This document shows positions 10,004 to 53,408 of a DNA stretch of 64,000 nucleotides, piece after piece. How positions within the stretch are numbered: the stretch's first letter is position 1; the number at the start of each line of letters is the position of its first letter. Source of the DNA: a virus. Lineage: Duplodnaviria; Heunggongvirae; Uroviricota; Caudoviricetes. The position numbers and the translations under genes were made by a program. The stretch is taken from IMG/VR virus record IMGVR_UViG_3300045836_000108, positions 1-64,000 of that record; one strand, given 5' to 3'. The notes under the pieces were generated by a model. The model had not been told where the DNA came from and ran no database searches. It was given only the letters and a program-made list of their open reading frames with translations.

Positions 10004-10006
10004 GCC

Positions 10007-11478: not shown

Positions 11479-11626
11479 CTACGACAAAGACCCCGCAGCG
11501 CAACGCCGTATCTTGCGCCGTAAGAGCCGTAACCGGCCTGTTCTGCACCCGGACAAGGACCGGCACGGCTACACGCCCGTAGACATCTCTCCGGCCGTTC
11601 TAGAGGACACGGAGGACCGGCCGTGA
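11459..11626 (+). CDS. Small basic hypothetical protein (55 aa)
   Basis: ATG in frame of ORF 11366..11626. Confidence 0.35.
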   Translation: MSMRPPSYDKDPAAQRRILRRKSRNRPVLHPDKDRHGYTPVDISPAVLEDTEDRP

Positions 11627-16626: not shown

Positions 16627-17160
16627 TTACTGCGCAATCCAGGCGACAGTGAAGTCTGCGTACAGCGTGCTGTTGTCCAAGGACAAAGTGGAGCCGCTGC
16701 TCTGCCTCACCCAAATCTCCACGTAGTCCCCCACGTTCATCCGCACCAGACCCGACGTGCTGAAATGCGCAAAGTTGCTGGTCTGACGCTCCTGGAATGC
16801 GCCCGACCCTGACCAAGTAGAGCCGTTCTTAGCGATAGCCGTGTCGATACGGCAGGTAGGCGCCACGTTAACGGCCCAGCCAGCCGAACCTTTCACCCAG
16901 TACATTCCAGCAACCTGGCACGTGTACCGGCCATTGTTTCCAATGGAAGTGTGGCCGCCGTCCGTATCCAAACGACCCTGGTTGTACTGCACAACCGTCC
17001 AGGTGTTGTTGCTGACGGACTGCCCCAAAGTGGAAACCGCCTTGAACGTCGGCTTATTGGACAGGAAATCGTTGAGGGCTTTAACGCCGTTGTTCCACAC
17101 CTGAGCAGACAAAAGGTTCCCGGTCTGCTGCATAGGAACAGATGGAACAGTACGGGCCAT
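16627..17160 (-). CDS. Minor tail/receptor-binding candidate, paralog 1
   Basis: 177 aa; MARTVPSVPMQQTGN...YTCQVAGMYWVKGSAGWAVN. Confidence 0.55.
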   Translation of the reverse strand: MARTVPSVPMQQTGNLLSAQVWNNGVKALNDFLSNKPTFKAVSTLGQSVSNNTWTVVQYNQGRLDTDGGHTSIGNNGRYTCQVAGMYWVKGSAGWAVNVAPTCRIDTAIAKNGSTWSGSGAFQERQTSNFAHFSTSGLVRMNVGDYVEIWVRQSSGSTLSLDNSTLYADFTVAWIAQ

Positions 17161-24656: not shown

Positions 24657-25835
24657 TTAGTAGGCGGTAGACACGTAGTTCGTGACAGTGGCGGAGATTG
24701 CCCCACCGTCGGTGGAGTTGTAGATACCCGACAGGGAGAAGTCCGCCGACACGTACACCGTGGACAAGTCCACCTTGCCCTTGTACCAGCCCGACTTGTT
24801 GGTGGTGAGGGTGATCACCGAGCCTCCGGACGTCACCGGCTGCGTAATGGTTGCTGTTGCCGGAAGCTGCGTGTAGTTCAGGTACAGGTTCAGGTCGGTG
24901 TCGTTCTCAAAGATTGCCTTGTACGTGCCGTCCGCCTCCAAGACACCCTGGAACACCTCGCGAGGGTTCTGGGTGCCGTTGGAGGCGTGGATAGCATCGG
25001 CCGGACGCTTGATCGTCAAGTCGTACGTCAGGCCGCGCGTGGACGACGCACCCGCGTTGGTCATCGTCCACTGCCAGCCCAAACCGGGGATGGCGGAGGA
25101 GAACGCGGGCACCGGGTCAGTCTGTTCAGCGGACAGCCAGCCGGTGTACTTGACCGAGAAAGTCATCACGGCCTTGGGGTCGATCTTGATGGCGCACTCG
25201 GAGATCTTGCAACCCGGGAAGCCGCGCGTATGGCTGGAAGTGGCGTTAGTAGCCACGTCGTACTTGGTCAAACTCCACGACGTCTGCGGCGCCGTGGGGT
25301 TCTGCTTGAACGTGTGCGTTGACTGGGACGTCACCGAACCGCCAGCGGCGGTGTGCGCGTACAACGTGCCGGTGGACGGGGTGGTAATCGGAGCCGTGTA
25401 CGGGCCGGTACCAGTGACGGTGCCGACCTGCACATACTCAGTGTTGGCTCCAGCAGCGTCCTGGAGCCGGATTACCGAGTTGGAAGGCACCGACGCCGTC
25501 AACGACAGCGACGTCGCACCCTGGGAGCAGTTTGACGCCAACGTGGTGCTGACACCGACGGTGGTTACAGTGTCCGGGCCGATGATCCCCCGCAGCAGGT
25601 AAGGGATAGCGTCCGGGTACGCCATGACGTCAATGGAGAACGTGGAATCACCCGGACCCTGGTACAGGCCCTGTACCAGGGTGTCGTTGTTGCGGTACGA
25701 CTCGTCACGCAACTCAACGTACACGTCCTCCGCATCGATCTTGGTGCACGGGATGTAAAACGCAGGCGTGACGTAGGTTCCCTGCGTCACCTCCTTGGCG
25801 ATGCCCACATACCCGAGCTTCGCAAGAGAAGTCAC
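24657..25835 (-). CDS. Major tail protein candidate
   Basis: 392 aa Thr/Ser/Gly-rich; immediately upstream of chaperone pair. Confidence 0.5.
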   Translation of the reverse strand: MTSLAKLGYVGIAKEVTQGTYVTPAFYIPCTKIDAEDVYVELRDESYRNNDTLVQGLYQGPGDSTFSIDVMAYPDAIPYLLRGIIGPDTVTTVGVSTTLASNCSQGATSLSLTASVPSNSVIRLQDAAGANTEYVQVGTVTGTGPYTAPITTPSTGTLYAHTAAGGSVTSQSTHTFKQNPTAPQTSWSLTKYDVATNATSSHTRGFPGCKISECAIKIDPKAVMTFSVKYTGWLSAEQTDPVPAFSSAIPGLGWQWTMTNAGASSTRGLTYDLTIKRPADAIHASNGTQNPREVFQGVLEADGTYKAIFENDTDLNLYLNYTQLPATATITQPVTSGGSVITLTTNKSGWYKGKVDLSTVYVSADFSLSGIYNSTDGGAISATVTNYVSTAY

Positions 25836-35843: not shown

Positions 35844-37223
35844 TCAGATGTTGGCAACAACCCGCGACAGACGACCAGCGTACTTCGGCGCCCGGAGCGC
35901 CAGCGTCGTGTCCGTCAGGACCGCGAACGGCAGCGTGTCCGGAGCCGTCACCGTCGGCGCCAGCGGCAGAATCTGCATGTTCCGGGTGTAAGGCCGGACC
36001 ATGAAGTTCGGGTCCATCGGCAGCAAGTAGATGTCCTCGTACGCGTTCTGCCCCACCGCAACCGGACGCGGCTTAGCGCCGGTGTTGGTGCCCACGTACG
36101 CCGTCGTGCCCGTGTTACCCGACGAGTTGGTGAGCAGGTTGGTGCCGGTGTCGATGATCGACGTGGTCGCGACACCGGTGGTGTCGAACGCGTCCACGAC
36201 GCCGATCAGCGTCTCAGCGCCGGTGGACGTGCCCCGGTACACCTTGTACAGGATCGGAGCCGCGCCGTCCGGCAGACCCGTCGGAGTCGAGAACGACAGC
36301 GTCACCGTGGAGGTGGAGCCGGTGGTGGTCTGGCTGACCTCCACCGAGCCTGCAATCTCACCGAAGCGGGCCACAACAGCCGACACGTTGTAGTAGTACG
36401 TGGCCGCCGCCAGCGTGCCGCCCGTGGTGGACGTCGCCGTGGTGACCGTACCCATCTGGAACGTGCGCGGCGACAAGAAGCTGGACTTCACCAGCGGGAT
36501 GCCACGGTACGTCGGCACGTTCAGACCGCCACCCAGGTTCGTGGTCGGCGCGGCGAAACGCTGCTGCGACACGAACAGCTGGGAGATAGCCGACACCATA
36601 CGGCCGGACATCAGCATCATCCACGGAGAACCGTCGATAGGCATGGCCGCGTTGGACTCGACCAGGTCAATCAGCTCGTCCAGCTTAGCCAGCGTAACGT
36701 TGCCATTGACGTCCTGCGCGTTCACAAACGCGTTGGAGCCGGTACCAGCAGTCCAGTTGGACACCAGGTAGTCCAGGCCGGTAGCCATCGGCTGCGTGCC
36801 GTTGGCCGTCGCCGGGTCGTTGCCCCAGACGAACGAGTTCTCCACGGTCCACAGCATCGACTGCACAGTGCCGTCCAGCTCCAGCTGGCGCAGGTCACCC
36901 ACGATGTCGCGGGTAACGGTCTGCGCGAAGCCGGTCACCGAACCAACAGCCTGGTACAGGCGGATGTTGTAGACAGACTGCTCGTACGTCGAGTTGCTGA
37001 TCGGACGCGCACCACCGTCGATGACGGCACCCGAGTCCGGCCGGTTCACCCGACGGTTGAAGAAGTACTGCGTGGAGTTCCACTGCTTGGTCGGGATAGC
37101 CGCCAGCATCGGAGAGTACCGGCGCTGGTACTCAAGCAGAACAGTGTCGATCGCCTTGGGAATGAGGGGGGTCACGGTCCCAGCCGTGGTCACCGCCTCT
37201 TCCAGCAGGGTCAGGTTAGGCAT
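35844..37223 (-). CDS. Major capsid protein (HK97-fold candidate)
   Basis: 459 aa; directly downstream of the protease/scaffold gene; typical MCP composition. Confidence 0.65.
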   Translation of the reverse strand: MPNLTLLEEAVTTAGTVTPLIPKAIDTVLLEYQRRYSPMLAAIPTKQWNSTQYFFNRRVNRPDSGAVIDGGARPISNSTYEQSVYNIRLYQAVGSVTGFAQTVTRDIVGDLRQLELDGTVQSMLWTVENSFVWGNDPATANGTQPMATGLDYLVSNWTAGTGSNAFVNAQDVNGNVTLAKLDELIDLVESNAAMPIDGSPWMMLMSGRMVSAISQLFVSQQRFAAPTTNLGGGLNVPTYRGIPLVKSSFLSPRTFQMGTVTTATSTTGGTLAAATYYYNVSAVVARFGEIAGSVEVSQTTTGSTSTVTLSFSTPTGLPDGAAPILYKVYRGTSTGAETLIGVVDAFDTTGVATTSIIDTGTNLLTNSSGNTGTTAYVGTNTGAKPRPVAVGQNAYEDIYLLPMDPNFMVRPYTRNMQILPLAPTVTAPDTLPFAVLTDTTLALRAPKYAGRLSRVVANI

Positions 37224-37257: not shown

Positions 37258-39360
37258 TCAGGCCGACGCCGGAGCGTCCGGAGCCTTCAGGCCGTAGCCG
37301 CCCAGGAGGATGTCCACGCGGTTGTTGTTGAACAGCTCCGCGTCAGTCATCTGCACCTCCTCCTCGGCGTTCTCCGACAGGCGGTAACCGCGACGCGGCG
37401 GCAGCCCGTTCTCCTTCAGGAGTTCGTTACGAAGCTCGTCACGAATCTCCTTCCGCAGCTCCTTGGCCAGGGACTCCTTCAGTGCCGTGAGGTCTTCAGC
37501 CTTCGGGGTGCCGTCCTCAACTGGGGCGGCCTCAGCGACAGACTCTTCAGCAACCTGCTCGGTGGTCTCCTGCGCGGGGGCAGCGTGCTTTGCGTTCTTG
37601 TTGTCTTCCGGCGCCACAGCCTTCAGGGCCGCAGCAACCGACTCGCCGATGATCAAACGCAGGTCATCAGCGGTCAGAGCAATAGTCGGAGCCGCCTCGG
37701 TAGCGGCCGTGTTCTGGGTCTCGCCCATGGCGGACTCCTCCTCGTTGTCAGGGGTGTTGCTCGACTCCGCCGTTGCCGACGGAGAAGTCACGTGTACGTG
37801 GTTGTGTCCGTGCTGGTGGGACTCGTTGTCCGACGATGCGTGGACGTGCGCGTGAGTGTGGGAGTGGCTGTACGGCTTCCCGCCGTTCTCCGACATAGCG
37901 TGATCGTGCATGTGGGAGTGGGTGTGGTTCTCGCCGTCCAAGTCGTGGGTGTGCGAGTGGCCGTCGGCGTCCGGCGCCATCGTCATCTCCTGCGTTTCCG
38001 CGCTGTCAGCGGAACGCTCAGCGGCACGAGCCAACAAGGCGTCTATCTTGGCGTTCAGAGCTTCCTGAGTCTGGCGCAGCTGTTCCAACTCCGGGAAGTC
38101 GGCAGAGACCTCCAGACGACGGTAATGAGTCACTTGGGAAGTCTGCTCCCCAGCGGAATCGCCCTGCGGCGCAGACTCCCCGTAGTTGTCCAGCATGTTG
38201 TCGTCCGGGATGACGCCGCCAACAGCTGCGGTGCCCTGTTCCATAGGGCCTTCGCCCTCAGCGCCAACGTCAATGTCGGCATCGTCGTCGGGGTCCATGA
38301 CGTTGATGGCGTTCATCGCCGCTACCGCAGCAGCCTGAGCAGCAGCCCGCAGCTGATCCGGCGTCACGCAACCCCGGATAGTCACCGACAGAGGACCCGA
38401 GTAGGCGTCGATGCAGAAACCCGACACGTTGGAGGTGTCACCGTAGTACTCGGTGACATCTCCCACCCGCACCTCCGACTCCTTCATAGAGCCGTCGCTG
38501 GCCCAGTTGTCGGGGATCAGATCAGAGGCACCTAGAGCCTTGGCCCGCTTGATGATGTGCCGCCGGATAGCGTCATGGTCGGCTCCGCCCCGGCCAACAG
38601 CCTTGATGGCTTTCTTCAGGTCAGAAACGTCCTTGATCGGGTACGACGGGTCACCGTTGTCGTTCTTCATCGCCTGACCCTTGGACGCCATGTCCTTCAT
38701 GTCGTCGGCGCTGTACTTGGCCTCCGACACCCAGTAAGGCGTGAGGTCACCCTCAAACTGAACACCGCGCGTCACGGTCCACTCCTTGGTCTCCTGGGTG
38801 ATGTCGGCCCAGCCGGAGTCCTCCTCGGAGAGGGTGACGTTCGCCTCCATCGCCTCGCTGATAGGCGTCCGGAGGACACCGCCGGACTCGGTTGCCTTGC
38901 TGGATCCCGAGTCGATGAGTGCGCCGTCCACCCCCGGGCTGGCGGTGAAGTCGATAGCGTCAATCTCAAGATCGTCAGCGGAGGTGGCCAAGCCCTCCGC
39001 TGTCTGCACCTGCTTGGTGTCACCCACCCAGTAGCCGTGAATCGACACAGAACGCAGCGCAGGCGCCTTCCCCGTCACCAAGGCGGCAATGTCCTGGCCG
39101 TGGGACGTGTTGTACAAGTCCGCCTTGTACCGCAGCGACTTGTCCTCGCCGATACTCACCGCCGTGACCCGGCCAACAATCCGCGCGGAGTCATCCCCAG
39201 CCTCATGGTGGGTCCGCATCACGATAGGCAACCCGTTGGGGTCCGCCAGACGTTCCTGCATACGGGCAGCTGCCTTAGCAATCAGCTCCGGCGTGTACAG
39301 GCGCCGGTTACGGCTGACACCCGGAGCCAAGGCGACACCGCTGATCTTGGCTAGTGCCAT
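37258..39360 (-). CDS. Prohead protease (HK97 family) fused to a scaffold-like domain with a His-rich insert
   Basis: N-terminal region (ISGVALAPGVSRNRRLYTPELIAK...PIVMRTHHEAGDD) resembles caudoviral prohead protease; C-terminal acidic coiled region; His-rich tract HSHTHDLDGENHTHSHMHDHA..HSHTHAHVHAS..HQHGHNHVH. Confidence 0.6.
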   Translation of the reverse strand: MALAKISGVALAPGVSRNRRLYTPELIAKAAARMQERLADPNGLPIVMRTHHEAGDDSARIVGRVTAVSIGEDKSLRYKADLYNTSHGQDIAALVTGKAPALRSVSIHGYWVGDTKQVQTAEGLATSADDLEIDAIDFTASPGVDGALIDSGSSKATESGGVLRTPISEAMEANVTLSEEDSGWADITQETKEWTVTRGVQFEGDLTPYWVSEAKYSADDMKDMASKGQAMKNDNGDPSYPIKDVSDLKKAIKAVGRGGADHDAIRRHIIKRAKALGASDLIPDNWASDGSMKESEVRVGDVTEYYGDTSNVSGFCIDAYSGPLSVTIRGCVTPDQLRAAAQAAAVAAMNAINVMDPDDDADIDVGAEGEGPMEQGTAAVGGVIPDDNMLDNYGESAPQGDSAGEQTSQVTHYRRLEVSADFPELEQLRQTQEALNAKIDALLARAAERSADSAETQEMTMAPDADGHSHTHDLDGENHTHSHMHDHAMSENGGKPYSHSHTHAHVHASSDNESHQHGHNHVHVTSPSATAESSNTPDNEEESAMGETQNTAATEAAPTIALTADDLRLIIGESVAAALKAVAPEDNKNAKHAAPAQETTEQVAEESVAEAAPVEDGTPKAEDLTALKESLAKELRKEIRDELRNELLKENGLPPRRGYRLSENAEEEVQMTDAELFNNNRVDILLGGYGLKAPDAPASA

Positions 39361-39370: not shown

Positions 39371-39691
39371 TTAGTGGTAGCTGATGGTGAGGGCTCCGTT
39401 GGTGGCAGCGCCAGCGACGGTCAGCCCGTTCTCAAACGGCATCCCCAGGTTGTAGATGCTGCCGACAGCAGCAGAAGCCGGAACAACGCCGATGATGACG
39501 CCGGTCACAGCGCCGGAGGCCGGTCCGTTGGCGTCGTAGATGTTGATTGCGGCAGCGCCGTTGGTGGACGTCACCAAGATCTTGGCTAGCGCGCCAGAGC
39601 CGGTTTTGACGACGGTGTTGCTTGTGGTTCCGGCGGCCACGGTCGCAGTGGAGTCGCCATCGTCGGTGGTGTTGACCAGCGGAGCAGTCAC
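39371..39691 (-). CDS. Small Gly/Ala/Thr-rich head-module protein (106 aa)
   Basis: GTG 3 nt after GGAGGG RBS, directly after the MuF stop; ORF track frame 39371..39829. Confidence 0.45.
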   Translation of the reverse strand: MTAPLVNTTDDGDSTATVAAGTTSNTVVKTGSGALAKILVTSTNGAAAINIYDANGPASGAVTGVIIGVVPASAAVGSIYNLGMPFENGLTVAGAATNGALTISYH

Positions 39692-39699
39692 GTGCCCTC

Positions 39700-40695
39700 C
39701 TAGTTGAAGAATCCGCTGTACGCGGAGATGTCGAACTCTGCGGAGGACACGCAACGGCAGCGGGGGTGCGCAGGCATTGACGGAAAGTCCATGATCGGAA
39801 AAGGGCTGTCCTCGCCGTACTTCTCGCAAATGGCGCAGACCCTACCGTCCCCGGCAGTCATCCACGTCACCTTCTGCACGCCCTCCGACTTGTACAGGTC
39901 CAGGGCGCCACGGGACATACCGAACGAGGCGGCCCAGTCCACGATGAACGCAACCGTGTCCTCCTCCGGGGACAGGGCCCCCAGAACGTCCACACCGGCC
40001 CGCACCATCTGGCTGTACTCGGCGCCGGAAGCGGCAAGGTCCCCCATCGTGTGCATGAACTCGTCCGCTGCCCGCCCCAGCATGCGGTGCAGCCAGCTGT
40101 CCGCTTCTGCCCAGGTGGCGCCGTCGTTGGCCAGGGCGTCATAGGCGTGCTGGAACGCAATGTCGAAGTCAAAACCCAGCTTGTGCTCAGCAGAGGCCGC
40201 CACCGCCAAAGCGTCGGCAAAGCCCTCCGCCCGGGACGCCGTGATCAGGTCACGCATGATGTCCCGGAGTTCCTGCCACGAATTGGTGCCCGGGACCCAG
40301 GCTAGGAGGCGCATAGCCGCATCCCTAGCCTCCCGCTTGACCCGACGTAGCCAATCAGGGTCCGGGGCCGCCTCCGACAGTCCTACGGCGTTTCTGAACA
40401 ACTCCACGGCCCCGGCAACATCCAGAGCCGCTGTCGCCTGCCGCCACACCGGCAACAGCTTGGCCGTGAAGTCATCCATCAACTTGAACCGGCGGGCAAA
40501 CACCGACGCCCACACGCCTTCAAGCTTCCCCAGATGGATAGCAACCTCAAGGATGCCCGGCTGATCCCAGTTCTCAGCACACAAGTCCATCGCAGCGATA
40601 CAGCCCGCGTGGACCCGCTCCGTCATCGGACCGCCCGACATGGCCCAACCCTGCGCATACGCCGTACGGGCATACGGCCGGATGGCGTCGTTCAA
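39700..40695 (-). CDS. MuF-like minor capsid / head morphogenesis protein
   Basis: 331 aa; C-terminal CAICE...PAHPRCRC motif, characteristic of the Phage_Mu_F/SPP1 gp7 family. Confidence 0.6.
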   Translation of the reverse strand: MNDAIRPYARTAYAQGWAMSGGPMTERVHAGCIAAMDLCAENWDQPGILEVAIHLGKLEGVWASVFARRFKLMDDFTAKLLPVWRQATAALDVAGAVELFRNAVGLSEAAPDPDWLRRVKREARDAAMRLLAWVPGTNSWQELRDIMRDLITASRAEGFADALAVAASAEHKLGFDFDIAFQHAYDALANDGATWAEADSWLHRMLGRAADEFMHTMGDLAASGAEYSQMVRAGVDVLGALSPEEDTVAFIVDWAASFGMSRGALDLYKSEGVQKVTWMTAGDGRVCAICEKYGEDSPFPIMDFPSMPAHPRCRCVSSAEFDISAYSGFFN

Positions 40696-40716
40696 TGAAC
40701 CCTCCTACAGTGAGGC

Positions 40717-40951
40717 CATGAGCGAGCCTTACATCAGCGGCATGGGCGAATTCCCGGAGATCCTGCACCGGATGCGGCACGTCATGGCCGGAACCGCCAT
40801 GCCCCCCCAGTTCACAGCCAACTTCATCCGCACCCTGGTGGAGGAACTTTGGGTAGCGCACAACGTCATCAAAGACTTGGAGAAACGCGTCACCGAGCTA
40901 GAAGACCGCACCCCCGACTGGCAGATACGGACCACCTCCCCGCTGCTCTAA
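40717..40951 (+). CDS. Small coiled-coil protein (77 aa) on the opposite strand, wedged between MuF and the beta-helix gene
   Basis: Very high GC3; ATG in frame of ORF 40640..40951. Confidence 0.4.
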
Positions 40952-42885
40952 CAGCCAATGGCCTTCTGCGTCGCCAACGTCGCCGTAGTAGCAGACCACT
41001 TCACCCACCAACCAGCAGGCAACCGGAAAGACATCAGCTCGCCAGCTGTAGCCGTCGCCGAGCTGATGATCGTGTTGGCCGGAGTAGACGTGGGACCGAT
41101 AGCCAACGTGTTAGCTGTACCGGCCGTACCAATCGTCAAATACACCATGTAGTCACGGGTGGTGTCGGACAGCTGCGCGGCGGTGCCGTTGGCGAATGTC
41201 GGTGTCAAAACTGGTGCGCCGTTTGCGGTGGTGGTCCCACCGCTCGGGGACCACACCCCCGTTGTCTGCGCCAACACGCCAGCGGACAAGCGCGCAATGG
41301 AGACATCGGAGCTGCCAGTACCGGGACCCCAGAACATGCCGCCGTCAGCGGTCAGCTGATACCGCTTGAACGTGTCGGTCCCCACGATGGAACCCAAGAT
41401 CGTGTTGCCGCTTGAGGTAGGAGACAACGTCAGCATGCCGGTCAACGGAGCCGGTGCCGACACGTTGGAGTTGCAGTTATCCAGCAGGAAACCTCCAGTG
41501 GAGGTTCCCAAGTTGATGTGCTTACCTGTCGGGGTGCCGATGTAGATGGCGGTAACGTTGCGGGCTGCAACGTTCTGCCCCGCTACCGTCGAGTTCAACG
41601 TCACGCCATTAGCAACCGTCTGCGGAGTGCCGGTGGCGATGAACACGTTGCTGAGGTCCGAGTCCTGCGACGACCAGGTAATCACGTCCTGGGGCGTCGA
41701 GTAGCCGGTATAGAAACCACCCGAGTAGCAGTACAGGTTGTTCACGTACACGCCCCGGGTGTTGGCGTCCACCAGCAGGTGCGGACCGCCGTTGATCACA
41801 GCGGTTTCCATCTTGCAGTCCACCAAGTAAATGCTGTTGCAACCGGAGGAACTGCCGGTGCCCTGCTGAATCCACATAGCGCCGGTGTGGAACGACTCAA
41901 ACCGGCACCCCACAAAGTGGATCTGGTTGGTGGTGTCGGTGGACGAACCGAAGCCGGACGCAGCAGCTGAGCACTGCAACAGGACGTTAGGGGTGGCAGC
42001 GTTGAACGTCGTGCTCCCCGACAGCTCAATCACCATGTTGTAGAACCGGGAATCCCAAAACTCCACGCCCGCGACACACACGTCAGGGTTGTTGACAATC
42101 CGGATGTTCTGAAAGTACAGGTTGTCGGCGTAATAGGCCTGAACAACCTGCCCGGTGAAGCCGTTCCCGGACAGATGAATGTTCTCGATCGAGCAGGTTT
42201 TGCAGTGGGTAGCACCTGTCGGGTCCGACGACACCCCCGACATGGAAATCAGCGTGCCGTTACCCAGCTTCTTGATCTGGGTGGAGCCGATAGAGTCCCC
42301 TACCAGACGGATGCCCGTGTAGGCGTTGGTGCCGTTGTTCAGCGTAATCGCAGCGGAGGAGCCTCCAGGCGTGACCGCGTACACCCCGGCAGGAAAGTAC
42401 ACAACGCAACCGTTAGCCGGTGACACCGCCGCAGCAGCGTTAACTGCTGCCTGAATAGCGGCGGTGTCGTCGGTGACGCCGTCCCCCGCAGCGCCGTACG
42501 ACTTCACCGAGATCCAGTCCGGTGTGCCAACGACAGTGCTACTTGGCGTCACAGGCGACAACGTTGAGATGTCTACCGTCGAACCCAGAGAGTGCGGCAA
42601 GTTCACGTTGTAGCTGCGCGGAGACAAACCCGTGATGGTTTCCGTGACCTTCCACGTCCAGTTTCCCGGCAGAAGCTGCCCCGTACAAGGCAGAACCACA
42701 GAGAAAGCGCCGGAGGTGTTCAGCGCCACCGTCACCCCGGTACCGCCCAACACAACCTGCCCCGTGGTGTCCACCAAGACCGGGGTAGAGGGCGTGAACG
42801 TCACCGTGCCCTGCATACCGGAACCTGTCGGGTTCAGGTAGGTGCCGGTCACCGTGATCGTGTTGATGTCCCCTGGCAGCGGCAC
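40948..42885 (-). CDS. Right-handed beta-helix (pectate-lyase-like) protein; depolymerase/tailspike candidate
   Basis: SVKSYGAAGDGVTDDTAAIQAAVNAA...VYFPAGVYAV signature of the pectate lyase fold; N-terminal domain MPLPGDINTITVTGT. Confidence 0.6.
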   Translation of the reverse strand: MPLPGDINTITVTGTYLNPTGSGMQGTVTFTPSTPVLVDTTGQVVLGGTGVTVALNTSGAFSVVLPCTGQLLPGNWTWKVTETITGLSPRSYNVNLPHSLGSTVDISTLSPVTPSSTVVGTPDWISVKSYGAAGDGVTDDTAAIQAAVNAAAAVSPANGCVVYFPAGVYAVTPGGSSAAITLNNGTNAYTGIRLVGDSIGSTQIKKLGNGTLISMSGVSSDPTGATHCKTCSIENIHLSGNGFTGQVVQAYYADNLYFQNIRIVNNPDVCVAGVEFWDSRFYNMVIELSGSTTFNAATPNVLLQCSAAASGFGSSTDTTNQIHFVGCRFESFHTGAMWIQQGTGSSSGCNSIYLVDCKMETAVINGGPHLLVDANTRGVYVNNLYCYSGGFYTGYSTPQDVITWSSQDSDLSNVFIATGTPQTVANGVTLNSTVAGQNVAARNVTAIYIGTPTGKHINLGTSTGGFLLDNCNSNVSAPAPLTGMLTLSPTSSGNTILGSIVGTDTFKRYQLTADGGMFWGPGTGSSDVSIARLSAGVLAQTTGVWSPSGGTTTANGAPVLTPTFANGTAAQLSDTTRDYMVYLTIGTAGTANTLAIGPTSTPANTIISSATATAGELMSFRLPAGWWVKWSATTATLATQKAIGC

Positions 42886-42899
42886 AGCCGACTCCTCAT

Positions 42900-43235
42900 C
42901 TACGGCAGTAAAGCCGTCAAATCCACCGTTGTTCCAAGCGTGTGAGGAATCGACTTCCCCGGGTACTGCGCCGCCGCTGCCCCGTTCAACGCCACACTGA
43001 TCGTGTACGTGAAAGCAGGCAGGTTAGCGTTGTCGGTGCACACCAACACCACCGACATGTTGTTGACGCCATCCAAAGCGGCCGACGTCGGACCCTCGAT
43101 AGTGACGTGACCCACCGAGTCATTCAACGGCAACACGGAAGGGGTGAACGTTACCGTGCCGGTTGCCTTCACCCCCAATACGTTTAACAAGGTCCCCGTG
43201 ACCGTGATCGTGTTCAAGTCCCCCGGCAACGGCAT
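42900..43235 (-). CDS. Stand-alone copy of the N-terminal domain of the beta-helix protein (111 aa)
   Basis: MPLPGDLNTITVTGT...GTVTFTPS shared with 40948..42885. Confidence 0.5.
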   Translation of the reverse strand: MPLPGDLNTITVTGTLLNVLGVKATGTVTFTPSVLPLNDSVGHVTIEGPTSAALDGVNNMSVVLVCTDNANLPAFTYTISVALNGAAAAQYPGKSIPHTLGTTVDLTALLP

Positions 43236-43244
43236 CTGCTGCTC

Positions 43245-43409
43245 CTATCAACGTCTAAGCCAAGACTCCACAGGCAGAAGGTGCAGAGCCAGAAAAGCCG
43301 CCGCCAGAGCCAGCAGCGCCTCCGGGGAGAACCACGTGTTGGTGTGGGCTCCCAAACCAATCAGGATGAAGTCCAAGACGGCCGCGATTACGGCCAGAAC
43401 AGCGAACAT
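43245..43409 (-). CDS. Small membrane protein (54 aa, 2 TM)
   Basis: ATG after GGAGGT overlapping the dcd stop; hydrophobic; not in the ORF track; coordinates approximate. Confidence 0.35.
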
Positions 43410-43987
43410 CAGCGCACCTCCGTGCGGTGAAAGTTGATCCAGCCCCGGGACGGGGTCGGACCGCGCTGTCCCTGATACCTGCTGCCGTTGGCTTTATTCC
43501 CGTACGGCTCCTCCGCTGGGGAGGACAGCTGAAAGAAACACAGCTGCCCGATCTTCATCCCCGGCCACAGCTTCACCGGCAACGACGCGACATTGGACAA
43601 CTCCAACGTGACGTGGCCTGTGAACCCGGGATCGATGAAACCAGCGGTGGAGTGGACCAGAAGCCCCAGGCGCCCCAGAGAAGACTTCCCCTCCAGCCGC
43701 GCCGCAACATCGTCCGGGAGAGACACTGCCTCCAGTGTCGAACCCAGGACGAACTCCCCGGGGTGGAGGATGAACGGCTCACCGCCCTCTGGCTCCACCA
43801 TCCGGGTCAGCCCCGGCTGCTCCACAGACGGGTCAATAACTGCGTAGCGGTGGTTCTCAAACACCCGGAAGAACCGGTCCAGCCGGACGTCCACGGAGGA
43901 CGGCTGCACCATGGAGAAGTCCAGCGGGTCCAGACCGATGTGTCCCTTGGCGATGCTTGCGCGGATGTCCCTGTCGGAGAGCAGCAT
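43409..43987 (-). CDS. dcd: dCTP deaminase
   Basis: 192 aa; full-length match in character to Dcd ([21 protein letters not shown]...[17 protein letters not shown]...). Confidence 0.75.
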
Positions 43988-44006
43988 CCAAGCAGCCTAG
44001 CCTGTG

Positions 44007-44089
44007 CGGAAGACGAGGGAATCGAACCCCCAACGGTGTTACCCGCCACGGTTTTCGGGACCGCTTGACTCTCCAATGTCGGGTCTTCC
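44007..44089 (-). tRNA. Type II tRNA-like gene, anticodon CGA (Ser?) with C33
   Basis: 83 nt; acceptor GGAAGAC/GTCTTCC, T-arm GGGGGTTCGATTCCCTC, anticodon arm GCGGT-CCCGAAA-ACCGT, long variable arm; coordinates +/-2. Confidence 0.5.
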
Positions 44090-44185
44090 TTGCGCCTGGT
44101 TTGGGTTTCCAACCCATCCGGGAGCACGGCGTTGCGCAAACCAGGCAAGACCTGCCGTTCTCGACGCGGCAGGTGCTCCATCAGT

Positions 44186-44256
44186 GGGCGGCCGTGGGAT
44201 TCGAACCCACACGCACGGAAACGGGTCCGCTGTCCTACCTGTTAGACCAGACCGCC
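44186..44256 (-). tRNA. Atypical tRNA-like gene (6-nt anticodon loop; possible pseudo-tRNA)
   Basis: Acceptor GGCGGTC/GGCCGCC, D-arm GTCT..AGAC-like, T-arm GTGGGTTCGAATCCCAC are canonical but the anticodon arm folds only as GCGGA-CCCGTT-TCCGT. Confidence 0.35.
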
Positions 44257-44378
44257 CATGACACGGAGTCGTAAGACCCTTGGCTGTCAAGCAGCGCAGG
44301 CGACGTGTCTCGCCCCAGTACCCCACTGGCCAGGTGGAGCGCTTGCGGTTTGTAGTGACCGATACCGCCAAACGGTCG

Positions 44379-44484
44379 CGGAGAGAGTAGGGATTGAACC
44401 TACGCCAAGGGGATTACGTCCCTTTGGGCACCGGCCGCCTGATCAGGGCCCAGACCGGTCCCATTGCCACTCTGGCACCTCTCC
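44379..44484 (-). tRNA. Aberrant 106-nt tRNA-like element (Ser-like arms with ~11-nt insertion in the anticodon loop and oversized variable region)
   Basis: Acceptor GGAGAGG/TCTCTCC, T-arm GTAGGTTCAATCCCTAC, D region GTGCCAGAGTGGCAATGG, Ser-like anticodon stem CCGGT...GCCGG enclosing 18 nt. Confidence 0.3.
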
Positions 44485-44489
44485 AACGT

Positions 44490-44564
44490 CGGGATAGCAG
44501 GATTCGAACCTGCGCTCTCCTGATCCCAAATCAGGCGCCCTCGTCCAAGCTAGGCCACATCCCG
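44490..44564 (-). tRNA. tRNA-Pro (anticodon TGG), slightly atypical D-arm
   Basis: Acceptor CGGGATG/TATCCCG, anticodon arm CCTGA-TTTGGGA-TCAGG (U33, G37), T-arm GCAGGTTCGAATCCTGC. Confidence 0.55.
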
Positions 44565-44625
44565 TTGGCTGGGTGACCGGACAGCGCGCGTGCCCGTGAA
44601 GTACCGTGCGCCGTCCGGACCCCCA

Positions 44626-44698
44626 GTGGAGCAGGTGGGACTCGAACCCACATCCGCCTGCTTGCAAAGCAGGTGCTCAGCCATTGAGCTACAACCCC
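44626..44698 (-). tRNA. tRNA-Ala (anticodon TGC) with encoded CCA
   Basis: G3-U70 wobble, D-arm GCTC-AATGGCT-GAGC, anticodon arm CCTGC-TTTGCAA-GCAGG, T-arm GTGGGTTCGAGTCCCAC, 3' CCA. Confidence 0.65.
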
Positions 44699-44785
44699 AT
44701 GCGCGGGCCCGAGAACCGGACCTTGGCCGCCGTGGCGGTTTGGGCGTTCGCGCCATGCCCTACAAGCACATTACCGTGTTACCGG

Positions 44786-45127
44786 TTACTCGTCACGGCC
44801 AAAAGCGGAATCCCGCGCCCTACGCAACACACGGATCAGCCGGTTCAGCTCATCCCTGGACAACGGCGGCAGGAACCGCTCCGTGGCCGTGTTGTTGGGA
44901 GGCCAACAATCCGCACCCTCATAGTCCTCCCACGGCTGCGGCTCATGCGACACCACTGTCAGCTGCACGTAGCCCTTAACCTGGGAGCCGTCGTGCCAGC
45001 GCACATACAAGATGTCGTCCATCTCAGCCGTGGCACCCTCATCCGAGCCCCGCAGACCGGGCAGGCCGGGCAGGCCGTGCAGCATTTTCCGCCAATGCGC
45101 AAAGTTGATCTGTTCCTTCGGCATCAC
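44786..45127 (-). CDS. Hypothetical protein (113 aa)
   Basis: GTG/ATG after GGAGGTGGC RBS. Confidence 0.5.
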   Translation of the reverse strand: MMPKEQINFAHWRKMLHGLPGLPGLRGSDEGATAEMDDILYVRWHDGSQVKGYVQLTVVSHEPQPWEDYEGADCWPPNNTATERFLPPLSRDELNRLIRVLRRARDSAFGRDE

Positions 45128-47872: not shown

Positions 47873-48547
47873 TCAGCTGAAGTAGCCGTAGATCTGGTGA
47901 CCGGCCGTCGGCGTGATCGTGCCCAGGCTGGACCCGGCAGCTACCGGCGTGGTCTGCGACGTCAGCGACGTACCGCACCAGATAGGCGCTGCCGTGGCCA
48001 GTCCGGCGTGGGTGAATGCCGGTGCGCTGGCGAACGTTGGCATCGTACCTGCCACTACACACACAAACAGGTAGTAGTAGCCGGTGTAGGTGGTGGTGAA
48101 CGACGGGATGGCCGTGGTCGTGAGGGTGTTGGCGGCGAAGTACGCTGCGCCGGTGTTGTCGGCGGACACGGTCAACACCTTGTTGGTGTTGTCGGCCAGG
48201 CCAACCCAGGCGTGGGTGCCGGTAGCCTCCGCTGCGACGGAGAACAGAGTCAGGTTCGACAGGGTCAGACCTGCCTCGATAGGCAGCAGCGTCTCATACA
48301 CGGTGCCGGACGTCAGCGCAGCGGAGGTGGAGGTGGCCGACATGCGGCCATCCACCGACGCGGCCTTGGCACCGGACGGCTCCAGGTACTGGTACATCCA
48401 GGCCTTGGAGCCGGTGATACCGCCGGAGGCGACGATGGGGCCGTTGAAGGCGTTGTTGCCGGTGCCCTGGAGGGTCAGCTGGTCAATAGCGACGGTGCCG
48501 GGGGTGTACTGCCCGGTCACTACGACGTTGGGTGCGACGGCGTTCAT
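47873..48547 (-). CDS. Structural protein (224 aa) sharing its N-terminal domain with the downstream beta-helix protein
   Basis: P.VVT..PG.V.IDQLTLQG..N.FNGP.VA motif common to both N-termini. Confidence 0.5.
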   Translation of the reverse strand: MNAVAPNVVVTGQYTPGTVAIDQLTLQGTGNNAFNGPIVASGGITGSKAWMYQYLEPSGAKAASVDGRMSATSTSAALTSGTVYETLLPIEAGLTLSNLTLFSVAAEATGTHAWVGLADNTNKVLTVSADNTGAAYFAANTLTTTAIPSFTTTYTGYYYLFVCVVAGTMPTFASAPAFTHAGLATAAPIWCGTSLTSQTTPVAAGSSLGTITPTAGHQIYGYFS

Positions 48548-48611: not shown

Positions 48612-50288
48612 CTAGGCATCGTTGCTCCTTCCCGGCCCGGGAAGCTGCTTCAGAGCTTCTTTCCGGCGGGCCCTGTACGCGCGGTCCCACGATGCCGTCA
48701 GAGCGCGCCTATCGGCCTCTGAGGCTGTTTCCCGGGGCGGCTTGCCCTGAGTGGCGTCCTTAGGAAGTCCCGGACCAACAAGCGGCGACATCTTGGCGTT
48801 GGGATGCATGTCCGGGACTGGAGCGACCTTCCCGCCTGACACCGCAGCAGCATTAGCAGCCAAAGCAGCCGGAGGCTCCGGAACCTCAGCGTCCGGCAGT
48901 CCCGGCACGTAGCCGTTGACACCGGCAGCGGTCAGAGGGGCAGCGTTCTTGCCGACGCTGGCCTTGGACATCGCTTCCATGTCGTCCCACGCCACGATGC
49001 CGGTGCGGGTGTCCACGATGTTGATGTCTCCGCCGTCGATAGGCGGCTTGCCCAGTTCCGCACGCCAGTCGTTGACGGAGTACGCACCGTACTTGAGCCG
49101 CAGCTCACGCACCTGCTCCACCGTGAGACTGTCACGGAAGTCCACCTCGGCGAACTCCAGATGCCAGCCTTTGATGCCGAATCCCTGCTGAACGATGTGG
49201 TAGTTCAGCTTCTCCAGCAGAAGGTTGGCGATCGGGATGACCGTGTTCACCTGGAACGACTTGTTTTGTGCCTCGCCGGAGCCGCCGCCGATGTTGCCGG
49301 TCTCGATGATCCCCACCTTGGACGGGGGAACGCCGAACGCTGCGATAATCTGGTCCCGCAGCACCCGCTCCGTGTCCAGGTAGTCGGAGACCTTACGCGG
49401 GTCCAGCACCTGCACAGCGCCGCCGCCGGAGGTAATGACGGGGTTGCCGACGGCTTTGGGCCCCAGGTTGAACACCTGGTACTGCTCCCGCCAGCGTTGG
49501 ATGTCGGTGTCTTCGTAGTGGGCCAGGTCCACGTGGATGCGGGGCGGGTCTCCGCGCCGGAAGCATTCCTGGATGGTGGCCATGGTGAAGATCCAGGCGG
49601 TAACCGGAAGCAGGGCTAGCTGCGCCGGGGACACGCCGTACAGGCCTCCGCGCGGGGAGTCCAGGGAGATGTGCACCACCTCGTGGATCTTGAACTCTGC
49701 CTGCCGTAGCCCATCCACGTCCTGCCGGTAGCCGGTCACTTCCCCATGGGAGTCCGCAATCACGGTCATGGTGGTGGCGTCCAGCAGGTATAGAGCAACC
49801 GGCTGCCCCAGAAGCCAGATCACCTCAATGTAGGCGTCGCCAAAGAGCTGCAAGGACGTGATGACCATCCGCAGCAGCTGGATGATGTCCTGGGTTTCGT
49901 TGGTGAACTTCATCAGACGGCGCAGGTTAAGCACCTCTGGTGGCTCTTCCGGGACTTCATCCTCGGGTACGTCATCGTCTGGGACTATCTGGAGCCCTCC
50001 GGCGGTGACGGTGCGGGCGATAACGCCGATAGCGCTGCTCATCCAGCCGCAGGTGTTGTAGGCGTCGTGGAGGTGTTGGAGCAGTTGTTGACGCTCTGCC
50101 GATGCTGCCATCTGCTGGGACGGCATGTCGGAGGTGAGGGGGACGCCGAATTCAAAGCCGCGTCGGCGGATCTGCGCTGCGGTCCATTCGGGCATGAGCG
50201 CTTGGGCGGATGGTGCGTTTTGTTTGGCTTCTTGGGACTGCTCGGTGCGGAAGCCGAGGAGGCGTGCGAGGCCGTTGCCGACACCCAT
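48612..50288 (-). CDS. Portal protein
   Basis: 558 aa; after terminase in transcription order; typical portal size/composition. Confidence 0.65.
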   Translation of the reverse strand: MGVGNGLARLLGFRTEQSQEAKQNAPSAQALMPEWTAAQIRRRGFEFGVPLTSDMPSQQMAASAERQQLLQHLHDAYNTCGWMSSAIGVIARTVTAGGLQIVPDDDVPEDEVPEEPPEVLNLRRLMKFTNETQDIIQLLRMVITSLQLFGDAYIEVIWLLGQPVALYLLDATTMTVIADSHGEVTGYRQDVDGLRQAEFKIHEVVHISLDSPRGGLYGVSPAQLALLPVTAWIFTMATIQECFRRGDPPRIHVDLAHYEDTDIQRWREQYQVFNLGPKAVGNPVITSGGGAVQVLDPRKVSDYLDTERVLRDQIIAAFGVPPSKVGIIETGNIGGGSGEAQNKSFQVNTVIPIANLLLEKLNYHIVQQGFGIKGWHLEFAEVDFRDSLTVEQVRELRLKYGAYSVNDWRAELGKPPIDGGDINIVDTRTGIVAWDDMEAMSKASVGKNAAPLTAAGVNGYVPGLPDAEVPEPPAALAANAAAVSGGKVAPVPDMHPNAKMSPLVGPGLPKDATQGKPPRETASEADRRALTASWDRAYRARRKEALKQLPGPGRSNDA

Positions 50289-51131: not shown

Positions 51132-51431
51132 GTGCCCAAAGCTACCTGCCTCAAGTGCTCCAACACCGCCACAATCGCCATGCTCTGCGGCAAGTGCTAT
51201 CGCAACAGCCAGACGGAAGTGCCGGTTGCCCACCGGCCGGAACCGCGCGTTACGAAAATCCCCACGGCTGCCGGACCTGCGGTTTCTTACGAAACTCCAC
51301 CAGCTGGAGTGCAGCAGACCCGCTGTGAAGCCCCGGGCTGCGAGACTTTCGTAAGCCAACAGCCGACTGGCCGCCGCAAGCGGTTCTGCTCCGCGCGCTG
51401 CCGGGTGCGCTTCAACGCCGCCAAGGACTAG
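51132..51431 (+). CDS. Zinc-finger protein with N-terminal CxxC..CxxC and C-terminal RKRFCSARCR (FCS-like) motif
   Basis: 99 aa; + strand, converging on the large terminase gene. Confidence 0.45.
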   Translation: MPKATCLKCSNTATIAMLCGKCYRNSQTEVPVAHRPEPRVTKIPTAAGPAVSYETPPAGVQQTRCEAPGCETFVSQQPTGRRKRFCSARCRVRFNAAKD

Positions 51432-52984
51432 ATCCCCCACGGGTTCCCTGACGGGTGCAGCACCGGGAAGCCCCCGATGACCTCTCCCTTGTAGGCCGGG
51501 GTGAACTCTCCCCGCTGCTTCGGGTCCAACACGACGTCGCCGCCCGTAGGGACCGGCTCCGGCCAGTGGAACCGCACCTCGTTGCCCAGGTTCACCAGCA
51601 TGTACCGGAGCGCGTCTGCGGCATGGTCTGGGGCTTTAGGGTCTGAGTCCTCCGGGTTGCCGGTCTTGGCGTACGGCAAGTCCGCAAGCTCACTGAACAG
51701 CTTCATGCACGGGGAGAAAATGTGCAGCCTCGGGCAGGTTTCCCAACCCTCCGCCGCGTGCATCCGGCAAGCCGGAGCCTCAGCAAGGAACGAGTGGACA
51801 CGCTGCCAGCCCGCTACCCGGCTGCCCGGTCCCTTCCCTGCCTTCTCCAGATGCACGCCGTTCTCCGCGTACACCTGCGCGATGGGCTTAGCGTCACCGT
51901 TAACAGCCCACATTGCGTCGTCTGCGTACCGGGCTGTGATGGACTCTCCCGGCTGCTCTGCGGCCAAAATAGACCGTGCCTGTTCTGTCTCCCCGATACC
52001 GGTCTGGTAGATCTCCCGATAGATCCACAACCGCTTGTCCTCGTCCAAAGCACCCCACAGGACAGCCCACGGCGCTGCGAAACCCCAGTCCACAGACATG
52101 TACCGGCGCCACGTCTCCGGCAACGTCAAAGGCTGCACCACATGCCGGTCGTACGACAGCTCCGGGAACACCTGGCCCTCAAAGACGTCCCAGTTGCCGT
52201 CCACGTAGGCCTTGCGGAGCTGTTCCGGCAGACCCATCAAGTCCGCGCGGTACTCCTCATTCAGGTGCGGGTTGTCCGACAGCTTCGACGGGATGAAACG
52301 CACTGTCCGCTTGCGTTTCTCATCCAACACGACTTCCTGGCCGTACTTGGTGGGCTTGATGTACCGGTCCTTGGTGGCCGAGTGCGACGGGCCACCAGGG
52401 TTGGAACCAGACCGGATACCCAACACCGGAATGTTGTTGCCGGACCGCAGCCGCGACTCCAGGAACGTCAACACGTCCGACGGCGTCAGCGTCCGCTCAT
52501 CAAACAGCAACAGCTGAAACTCGGAGCCCTGACGGCGGGAAGCGTCCACCATGTTCTCGGCGTACCGGAACATCATGATCGAGCCGTTCGGGAACCTCAG
52601 CTCGTAGTCCCCACCAGCCCACTTAGCGCCAAGGACGTTAGCAAACCCGTAGGATGCCAACTCCTTAATCAGCGACTCCTTCAGCTCCGGGTACGTCCTC
52701 CGGAACGCACCCACCCGGATACCCGGGTACCGCACACACGCCCGGATACCCTCCATCAGCAGGGCAACAGTCTTCCCGCCGCCAACAGCACCGCCGTACA
52801 ACACGTCATACTCGGTGGCGTCGTGGAACATCTGCTGACGCGGCGTCGGAACGTAGCCCAGAGCAGCGAAAACGTCCGTACGCCGCATCTTCTCAAGCTG
52901 GATCTTGTTGTACTGCTCCTGAAGCCTCTTCAGCTCCTCCAGCCGGGAGAGCTTGTACGCTGCCAGGCTCATCTCCCCAGCCAT
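51428..52984 (-). CDS. Terminase large subunit (start uncertain; frame open to 53086)
   Basis: Walker A-like GGAVGGGKT near the N-terminus; ~520-550 aa; ATG 52984 has a GGAGGGA RBS. Confidence 0.7.
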   Translation of the reverse strand: MAGEMSLAAYKLSRLEELKRLQEQYNKIQLEKMRRTDVFAALGYVPTPRQQMFHDATEYDVLYGGAVGGGKTVALLMEGIRACVRYPGIRVGAFRRTYPELKESLIKELASYGFANVLGAKWAGGDYELRFPNGSIMMFRYAENMVDASRRQGSEFQLLLFDERTLTPSDVLTFLESRLRSGNNIPVLGIRSGSNPGGPSHSATKDRYIKPTKYGQEVVLDEKRKRTVRFIPSKLSDNPHLNEEYRADLMGLPEQLRKAYVDGNWDVFEGQVFPELSYDRHVVQPLTLPETWRRYMSVDWGFAAPWAVLWGALDEDKRLWIYREIYQTGIGETEQARSILAAEQPGESITARYADDAMWAVNGDAKPIAQVYAENGVHLEKAGKGPGSRVAGWQRVHSFLAEAPACRMHAAEGWETCPRLHIFSPCMKLFSELADLPYAKTGNPEDSDPKAPDHAADALRYMLVNLGNEVRFHWPEPVPTGGDVVLDPKQRGEFTPAYKGEVIGGFPVLHPSGNPWGI

Positions 52985-53408
52985 ACTCGGATCCCTCCAG
53001 ACGGAGCTGCTTACCCAACTCTTCAATCTGCCTGTCGATAGCGTCCACGGACGTGATCTCCAGGTTGACCTGGAGCGTCGGGTCAAGCTTCAACAGCTTG
53101 CAGATACGGTCCGTGACCTTCAAGACCATGTCGCCTGCGCCCTTGTCGCCCTTTACCGCGTCACCCCAGAAGGCCCGCCGCATCCGCAGCAGCACCAGCA
53201 GCTGTTCCTCGATGAGGAGGTCCACGTTGCGGGTGCGTTCCATGACGTGCTGCTCAAGAGCACGGTCGATGTCTACCGCTGCTGCGGAGCGTCCGGCGTA
53301 GCCCAGCTGGTCGGCAATCTGCTGGTAGGTGAGGCCTGCCAGTTTCAGCTCGACAGCTTGCGCTCGACGCTTGGCTGTAACGATCTGCTGCGCTTTGGAT
53401 GCCGCCAC
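52893..53408 (-). CDS. Terminase small subunit candidate (HTH-containing)
   Basis: GTG start; HTH LTYQQIADQLGY; immediately upstream of the large terminase. Confidence 0.5.
   Translation of the reverse strand: MAASKAQQIVTAKRRAQAVELKLAGLTYQQIADQLGYAGRSAAAVDIDRALEQHVMERTRNVDLLIEEQLLVLLRMRRAFWGDAVKGDKGAGDMVLKVTDRICKLLKLDPTLQVNLEITSVDAIDRQIEELGKQLRLEGSEYGWGDEPGSVQALPAGGAEEASGAVQQDPA

Follow-up and report, generated by a model that had tools for sequence, protein, structure and literature searches.

We analysed a 64,000-nucleotide (nt) stretch of DNA from a tailed phage (IMG/VR record IMGVR_UViG_3300045836_000108, positions 1-64,000; referred to here as the window), in which two adjacent minus-strand genes encode proteins that begin with the same kind of domain. 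The longer product, of 645 amino acids (aa), continues into a predicted β-helix that resembles those of tailspikes, and the shorter one, of 111 aa, consists of the N-terminal domain alone. The window is part of a metagenomic phage contig of about 103 kb, and an identical protein is present on a 102,929 bp JGI contig. In the order in which they are read, the features of the gene pair are as follows (the S and F types of the domain are introduced below).

43246-43242, minus strand: AGGAG, Shine-Dalgarno-like site of the 111 aa gene (sequence).
42900-43235, minus strand: stand-alone anchor-domain gene of the S type, 111 aa, ATG start, proposed collar spacer (list of open reading frames, ORFs).
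42892-42897, minus strand: GAGGAG, Shine-Dalgarno-like ribosome-binding site of the 645 aa gene, within the 13 nt gap after the 111 aa stop codon (sequence).
40948-42885, minus strand: candidate spike gene, 645 aa, GTG start (ORF list).
42565-42885, minus strand: F-type anchor domain, residues 1-107 of the 645 aa protein (BLASTP, AlphaFold2 model, hidden Markov model or HMM with E 3e-43).
42520-42564, minus strand: Pro/Ser/Thr-rich linker, residues 108-122 (predicted local distance difference test score, pLDDT, below 50).
41452-42519, minus strand: right-handed parallel β-helix, residues ∼123-478, putative glycanase module (PF12708, AlphaFold2, Foldseek).
40948-41418, minus strand: C-terminal β-sandwich, residues 490-645 (ending in ...AIGC), with the stop codon (AlphaFold2).

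The 645 aa protein carries the sequence SVKSYGAAGDGVTDDTAAIQAAVNAA...VYFPAGVYAV at residues 126-171. In a Pfam scan, residues 124-245 match PF12708 with 63.1 bits (cut-off 27; E 4e-17), and this family is also precomputed on nearly all homologues. The PHROG matches are to tail fibre, tailspike and EPS-depolymerase families. The AlphaFold2 model, for which 62 homologues served as input (mean pLDDT 83), consists of an N-terminal β-sandwich (residues 1-107), a linker that is disordered or of low confidence (108-122), a β-helix from about residue 123 to about residue 478 with a pLDDT mostly above 90 (∼130-470) and a C-terminal module of strands spanning residues 495-644, for which the pLDDT is 85-92 from residue ∼560 onwards. 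Comparison of this model with the PDB using Foldseek gives 92 matches at E ≤ 0.001, and all 50 of those listed are β-helix proteins. The top match is ORF18 of Geobacillus virus E2 (PDB entry 7chu; E 3e-12), a 'putative pectin lyase', followed by the alginate epimerases AlgE4/6, GH87 and GH28 enzymes, phi29 gp12 and the Sf6, CBA120 and Klebsiella tailspikes. A profile search of PDB sequences agrees and again ranks 7chu best (E 2e-16). The initial annotation had assigned a pectate-lyase-like fold and named Foldseek as a check on it, and a β-helix is indeed what was found.

With E2 ORF18 and the Sf6, CBA120, Klebsiella and phi29 gp12 proteins, the 645 aa protein shares the right-handed parallel β-helix and a PF12708-type cap (GDGxTDDTxAIQ). 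The identity to 7chu is only 18%, however, and the N- and C-terminal modules differ, so that neither substrate nor catalytic residues can be transferred from it. Closer relatives of the helix are cellular proteins of about 450 aa from Kitasatospora, Streptosporangium and Nonomuraea (about 50% identity over the helix), with which it shares the invariant motifs VEFWDSRFYN, GCRxE and CK(F/M)ET. These proteins, themselves uncharacterised, differ from the phage protein in having a twin-arginine signal peptide in the place of the anchor and a different, short C-terminus. They are called 'glycosyl hydrolase family 28-related', which is a database name only. A GH28 label for the 645 aa protein was considered and rejected because the Glyco_hydro_28 model has no match at E ≤ 0.1 in the Pfam scan; the GH28 enzymes in the PDB resemble the protein only in the N-terminal cap or in their overall fold. 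Eight residues (His227, Glu275, Trp277, Asp278, Glu330, Lys358, Glu360 and His456) are invariant across the 62 homologues, cellular ones included, and the acidic, His and Lys residues among them would fit an active site. As the module is shared by phage and cellular proteins and these residues are retained, it is probably an active enzyme that is common to phages and secreted actinomycete proteins.

The homologues fall into three classes: full-length proteins (82-89% identity), proteins with the helix and the C-terminal domain behind another N-terminus (about 80% coverage, 55-66% identity) and proteins with the helix only. The C-terminal module is thus not confined to proteins with this anchor; carbohydrate binding or trimerisation would be a guess at its role. 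One member of the second class, P0016 in locus L016 (58% identity), is encoded inside a tail module, where it is flanked by a 932 aa protein and by a PHROG-5313 protein of the same family as a 938 aa tail protein of the window. These relatives bear on the possibility that the 645 aa protein is a soluble enzyme freed at lysis, either a free depolymerase or the product of a host-derived auxiliary gene in a variable region. The mosaic surroundings of the gene, with dcd, transfer RNA (tRNA) genes and small ORFs, would suit such an enzyme, as would the similarity of the helix to secreted actinomycete proteins. Yet the protein has no signal peptide, the N-terminal domain that it carries has a fibre-anchor fold and is known elsewhere from tail-fibre genes, and its homologues with other N-termini occur inside tail modules. 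A soluble enzyme is therefore very unlikely. As in tailspikes, a separate N-terminal module (residues 1-107), which would bind the particle, is linked to a module predicted to be enzymatic.

In BLASTP, the alignment of the 111 aa protein to residues 1-111 of the 645 aa protein covers its whole length (46% identity, E 9e-22). Both carry MPLPGD[IL]NTITVTGT...GTVTFTPS, and the shorter product stops exactly at the domain boundary (...TVDLTALLP). The initial annotation was thus right to call the 111 aa gene a duplicate of the spike N-domain. No third copy of the domain was found in the window with tblastn and a domain HMM. Third-position GC is high in both genes, as in other genes of the window. 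AlphaFold2 predicts the 111 aa protein to be a β-sandwich of seven or eight strands (pLDDT 76.5); this model has no Foldseek match at E ≤ 0.001, and nothing was found in a PDB profile search with the anchor-domain sequence. A programmed frameshift or readthrough that fuses the two ORFs was also considered; it was rejected as the second ORF repeats the domain and has its own ribosome-binding site and start codon.

The ratio of nonsynonymous to synonymous substitution rates (dN/dS) of the 111 aa gene is 0.16-0.24 when the window and two related metagenome contigs (L001 and L003) are compared. For the N-domain of the 645 aa gene it is 0.16 between the window and L001, the only usable comparison, since an indel relative to L003 shifts the ungapped codon comparison. 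The 111 aa gene is under purifying selection and, by this measure, is functional. Its stand-alone relatives, as collected in a word-indexed search, form 36 clusters, 33 of which have a length of 109-114 aa and three of 128-143 aa. The search reached down to 39% identity, and nearly all of the clusters end in the motif ...DL(T/S)ALLP. The C-terminus of 49 proteins of the anchor family lies 0-4 residues from the end of the domain.

An exhaustive HMMER search with the 111 aa protein retrieves 321 cluster representatives (clusters at 50% identity). The domain takes up residues 1 to ∼111 in almost every one of them, while protein length varies from 109 to 1670 aa. The C-terminal parts of the 82 long members include PF12708 (eight), DUF5907 (four), Beta_helix (two), K1-lyase_C (two), a phage receptor-binding propeller (Phage_RBD_prop; one) and a polysaccharide deacetylase (one), and in most of the 82 the C-terminal part has no Pfam match. 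This distribution supports a shared N-terminal anchor with exchangeable distal parts, as the initial annotation had proposed, and suggests that C-terminal modules are exchanged at the domain boundary.

All 17 records of cultured phages with the anchor domain are Streptomyces phages, and a Streptomyces-like actinomycete host is therefore suggested. Among them, PhiC31 gp49, phiBT1 gp49, the TG1 homologue, Samy gp28 and RemusLoopin gp18 have the domain at residue 1 (33-39% identity; HMM E 1e-28 to 1e-33). They differ from the window in that their genes come last in the tail module, carry other C-terminal parts and have no S-type partner gene. Their function as 'tail fiber' or 'minor tail protein' is an annotation, not a demonstration, and the paper on Samy contains no virion proteomics for gp28. 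The proteins of about 100 aa encoded upstream of the fibre gene, Samy gp27 and RemusLoopin gp17, were considered as anchor duplicates and rejected, as they resemble membrane or coiled-coil proteins.

A matrix of bit scores splits the anchor domains into two types. The S type comprises stand-alone proteins (w111 of the window, L009_S, L012_S, L013_S and L014_S1), and the F type comprises the N-domain of the 645 aa protein together with those of long proteins from L009, L012 and L013. The N-domain of the 645 aa protein has its closest counterparts at the N-termini of the products of long fibre genes of L009 and L012, and is 59-61% identical to the F types of L009 versus 46% to the adjoining 111 aa protein. 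In a neighbour-joining tree, the nearest neighbour of 41 of 51 stand-alone sequences is itself stand-alone, a weak signal given that the sampling is biased towards the query. In each of the five independent contexts examined (the lineage of the window, L009, L012, L013 and L014), the S-type gene is followed directly by an F-type gene. The pair of 111 aa and 644/645 aa genes is found at the same place and with the same 13 nt gap in the related contigs L001-L005, where the large protein is 82-87% identical to that of the window. In L009 the pair lies within the tail module after the tape measure gene, and a second F-type gene follows further on. The S-type lineage arose before its carrier phages diverged. 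In a further locus, L008 (10001-14847 of a 109 kb contig), three consecutive anchor genes encode a stand-alone protein of 114 aa, a 722 aa protein and a 756 aa β-helix protein; their N-domains are closer to one another than to S or F types elsewhere, which suggests duplication or homogenisation within that genome.

The initial annotation had also raised the possibility that the stand-alone gene is a remnant of module exchange. Truncation at the domain boundary does occur: L014, which has the same order of terminase, portal and RNA-ligase/MuF genes, has a 110 aa ORF at the position of the 645 aa gene. L014 has two stand-alone anchor genes in tandem (6442-6774 and 6001-6432 of that locus), the first of the S type and the second, the 110 aa ORF, of the F type. 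This ORF scores 126 bits against the N-domain of the 645 aa protein versus 65 bits against the 111 aa protein, and stops at the domain boundary. It is a spike stripped of its distal modules and marks a site of exchange or loss. For the 111 aa gene itself, however, a decaying leftover is highly improbable given its dN/dS, its constant length, its ribosome-binding site, the end point common to the 36 clusters and an S-type lineage that predates the divergence of its carriers. Selection, length, the split into two types and the adjacency together indicate that the S-then-F pair is not a remnant; it is an old, mobile and conserved unit.

A possible function for such a pair is provided by mycobacteriophage Bxb1, which we describe here from chain names and counts in the PDB and from the GenBank annotation. 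PDB entry 9d93 contains nine chains of gp4 (tail collar fibre) and three of gp6 (tail collar spacer). The 86 aa gp6 is a paralogue of residues 3-84 of gp4 (E 4e-21), and the twelve anchor domains come from three gp4 trimers (nine) and from the spacer (three). The gp4 N-domain is present exactly twice in each of the 272 mycobacteriophage genomes that carry it. Like Bxb1, the window encodes, at a distance from the tail genes, a spike or fibre together with a second, free-standing version of the anchor, and like gp6, the 111 aa protein is a paralogue of the N-domain that ends at the domain boundary. The predicted fold of the anchor also appears to be that of gp6 and of the gp4 N-domain. Sequence homology is undetectable: hhalign comparisons with gp4 and gp6 give probabilities below 1% (0.9% and 0.2%), and the anchor-domain HMM finds nothing at E < 1 in nucleotides 1-12000 of Bxb1. 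Searched against the database, gp6 yielded a single cluster of near-identical proteins, and the family is too uniform for a stronger profile (at least 90% identity in 271 of 272 phages by tblastn). The relationship is consequently one of fold and organisation, and common descent is not demonstrated. There are also clear differences. The partner of the stand-alone protein is here a 645 aa β-helix protein and a predicted enzyme, whereas Bxb1 gp4 is a non-enzymatic fibre of 356 aa. The proposed spacer gene lies immediately upstream of the spike gene, whereas the Bxb1 spacer gene is downstream, separated from the fibre gene by gene 5. The 9 + 3 stoichiometry of the Bxb1 ring comes from a structure, whereas the system of the window is known from genes and predicted models. 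Bxb1 is nevertheless the closest precedent for a spacer.

In the reading that we favour, with a probability of about one half, the 645 aa protein is a depolymerase spike anchored to the virion and the 111 aa protein is a collar spacer that fills a ring. The first ∼107 residues of the spike would form a small β-sandwich anchor; in phages with solved structures, such anchors pack side by side into a ring or 'collar' that surrounds the tail or neck. Each spike trimer would contribute three F-type N-domains that splay into this ring, and S subunits would co-assemble with them to fill the positions that the trimeric spikes leave empty, in parallel with Bxb1, where three spacers and three times three gp4 chains add up to twelve. 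Clamped around the tail, the ring would expose the β-helix modules to the host, probably a Streptomyces-like actinomycete, where helix and C-terminal β-sandwich would attach to a glycan of the cell surface and cleave it. The S-then-F pair itself acts like a portable cassette in which C-terminal modules are swapped at the domain boundary. The term 'adaptor', used for the stand-alone domain in the initial annotation, comes close to this role but is imprecise, the best analogue being a ring-filling spacer like Bxb1 gp6.

Some observations weigh against an obligatory partnership of S and F proteins. Five Streptomyces phages of ∼113-116 kb (BRock, GiJojo, pSt2308, LuckySocke and Alone3) each have a single, stand-alone copy of the domain. 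In the two loci examined, those of BRock and GiJojo, the gene lies between RecA-like and RNA-ligase genes and belongs to the 110-111 aa class:

L018 6995-7327: BRock gp79, stand-alone anchor.
L017 7022-7357: GiJojo gp139, stand-alone anchor.

BRock, for which a sheath and baseplate are annotated, is a myovirus, and no fused copy of the anchor was found in the 64 kb that were scanned, which include the whole structural module. Its gp79 is annotated as 'tail fiber protein', which for 110 aa of anchor domain alone is a mis-annotation. Similarly, the stand-alone copy in L010 has no fused neighbour, and phages of the PhiC31 type have only a fused copy (one match per record). Stand-alone and fused copies occur together in all five S-type contexts, no fused partner was detected for the copies of BRock, GiJojo and L010, and the BRock-like phages weaken the case for a spacer. 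In BRock-type phages, the domain may form a ring by itself or have another role.

The same phages lend support to the idea that the 111 aa protein acts independently of the spike, as a fibreless collar or decoration ring or in a non-structural role, and that the adjacency of the two genes only reflects their descent by duplication. L010 would agree with this, as would L014, in which both copies stand alone and a long fused gene is missing within 6 kb. Nevertheless, an S-type gene precedes an F-type gene in five of five contexts despite differing flanks, which would be hard to keep without functional coupling; the copies in BRock, GiJojo, L008 and L010 belong to stand-alone lineages separate from the S type; and the paralogue in Bxb1 does serve as a spacer. 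We therefore consider an independent role unlikely.

A broader and tentative version of the favoured reading, doubtful as it stands, accommodates these phages in a portable 'socket and plug' cassette of actinophages. A conserved S subunit and interchangeable F-anchored spikes or fibres would form a mixed collar ring whose composition sets the number and kind of receptor-binding or depolymerase modules on display: S only in BRock-like myoviruses, F only in PhiC31, and S with one or two F types in the window, L008, L009 and L012. The same ring could be used on siphoviral and myoviral particles. Rings without a spacer have a precedent in the N-domain of Ur-lambda Stf (9e7m/9mgh), for which the two entries contain 24 chains, twelve per model, all of them fused protein. 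The lambda ring has no stand-alone paralogue and its protein no sequence similarity to those of the window; phages of the PhiC31 type, which lack an S gene and have a single fused copy, may represent an equivalent case.

The genes of the window that surround the pair are listed here; read from right to left, the order on the minus strand runs from terminase and portal to the major capsid protein.

51428-53086, minus strand: large terminase.
48612-50288, minus strand: portal.
47873-48547, minus strand: 224 aa gene.
46032-∼47840, minus strand: ∼602 aa gene.
44184-44698, minus strand: small ORFs and tRNA genes.
43409-43987, minus strand: dCTP deaminase (dcd; PF22769, E 5.5e-47).
43248-43409, minus strand: 53 aa membrane protein, between dcd and the 111 aa gene.
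39700-40695, minus strand: weakly MuF-like gene, 331 aa (PF04233 with E 0.007, under the Pfam cut-off; PHROG 115 'minor head protein' with E 1e-8).
Between the MuF-like and 700 aa genes, minus strand: ∼102 aa gene.
37258-39360, minus strand: 700 aa gene, no Pfam or PHROG match.
35844-37223, minus strand: major capsid protein.
24657-25835: tail tube (tail module).
19996-23430: tape measure (tail module).
17170-19986: 938 aa tail-tip protein, PHROG-5313 (tail module).

The tail module continues after the 938 aa protein with three paralogues of ∼180 aa and an endolysin, and is separated from the capsid genes by a 7 kb block on the opposite strand. No sheath gene is found in the window and, as tube and tape measure are present, the phage is a siphovirus. 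Megablast of positions 40000-44000 against 50,697 phage genomes returned no near-identical DNA, and the major capsid protein resembles only those of Leptospira phages (23% identity); the lineage therefore lacks a cultured relative that could guide annotation. A promoter and terminator scan of 39500-45000 gave results no better than for shuffled sequence.

The gene pair thus lies between the MuF-like gene and dcd with the tRNA genes, as the initial annotation had placed it, although the likeness to MuF is weak. The annotation had also called this position far from the tail module, which holds as a statement about gene order: the tail module is ∼15 kb (tube) to ∼24 kb from the spike gene, the tape measure ∼17-20 kb. 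It fails as evidence against tail attachment, since in Bxb1, too, genes 4-6 are found outside the tail module, upstream of the lysins and terminase. The 645 aa gene does lack the tail-module location of tailspike genes, yet homologues of both of its modules are found in tail modules (L009 and L016).

A position between portal and head genes would also be consistent with the same ring and spike being located at the neck, in which case the 645 aa protein would resemble neck appendages or collar spikes such as gp40 of Vibrio phage XM1 (7kjk), gp82 of cyanophage A-1(L) (8keg) or phi29 gp12. XM1 and A-1(L) are contractile-tailed phages with neck-attached spikes or fibres, six trimers in XM1; no stand-alone spacer has been described for them and their proteins have no sequence similarity to those of the window. 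Against the neck, the ring of the siphoviral analogues of the present phage, Bxb1 and lambda, is carried at the tip of the tail, genes for homologues of the N-domain close the tail module or come right after the tape measure gene, and gene position is a weak guide, as Bxb1 illustrates. A neck ring is possible but rather unlikely in our view, and attachment near the distal end of the tail is favoured.

A number of features around the pair were also recorded. Between the 645 aa and MuF-like genes, the window has an insertion of ∼260 nt (∼40687-40950), where L001 and L002 have a 13 nt gap instead. Mostly within it lies an ORF of 103 aa on the plus strand (40640-40951; GC3, third-position GC, of 0.81; no PHROG match), which is possibly a small inserted gene. 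The product of the 53 aa ORF upstream of the 111 aa gene has two hydrophobic segments; its start overlaps the dcd stop (ATGA), and the ORF is kept at 53-57 aa in L001 and L004 but is uncalled in L003. Beside tRNA-Pro(TGG) and tRNA-Ala(TGC), ARAGORN reports a tRNA-like gene with a two-base anticodon ('cg') at 44184-44257 on the minus strand. The 700 aa protein contains a histidine-rich stretch (HSHTHDLDGENHTHSHMHDH...HSHSHTHAHVH...HQHGHNHVH) and, by gene position, may be a scaffold or protease. At the MuF-like position, L003 (11953-13446) and L014 (9276-10757) encode proteins of 493-497 aa with a 2',5' RNA ligase domain (PF13563/LigT), and L001 has the 331 aa version of the window. An RNA ligase is also encoded two genes after the stand-alone anchor gene in BRock and GiJojo, which hints at old synteny.

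The arrangement of a short and a long protein with a common N-terminus recurs between the portal and the tRNA genes. The 224 aa and ∼602 aa proteins share their N-terminal ∼70-90 residues (33% identity, E 2e-6), which are unrelated to the domain of the 111 aa protein, and the 224 aa gene is duplicated in L003 and L004. The ∼602 aa protein, with its cap motif GDG..TDDTAAIQ and its match to PHROG 32881 'pectin lyase activity', may therefore represent another β-helix spike, on a second type of anchor. The three tandem paralogues directly downstream of the 938 aa tail-tip protein (15529-16074, 16084-16617 and 16627-17160, all on the minus strand; 181, 177 and 177 aa) are 30-37% identical to each other (E 1e-26 to 1e-30). 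One of them resembles the C-terminal end of long tail or virion proteins (PHROG 13989 and 11660), and they could be small receptor-binding heads.

As a phage protein, the β-helix spike is of a common kind, though its place in the genome is unusual, and the stand-alone anchor has its precedent in Bxb1 gp6. What is new is a large unannotated S-type family, a conserved S-then-F cassette in uncultured actinophages and the exact boundary between the modules. A family of 321 representatives, with at least 36 clusters of ∼110 aa 'hypothetical proteins', is thereby tied to a structural role that was recently solved in Bxb1, and the boundary at which actinophage spikes exchange distal modules is of practical use for engineering the host range of Streptomyces phages. 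The uncharacterised β-helix enzyme family spans phages and secreted proteins of filamentous actinomycetes, and its substrate may be the glycan that the phage uses as a receptor. If the socket-and-plug version is true, ring composition would be a general, tunable device for setting host range rather than a peculiarity of Bxb1.

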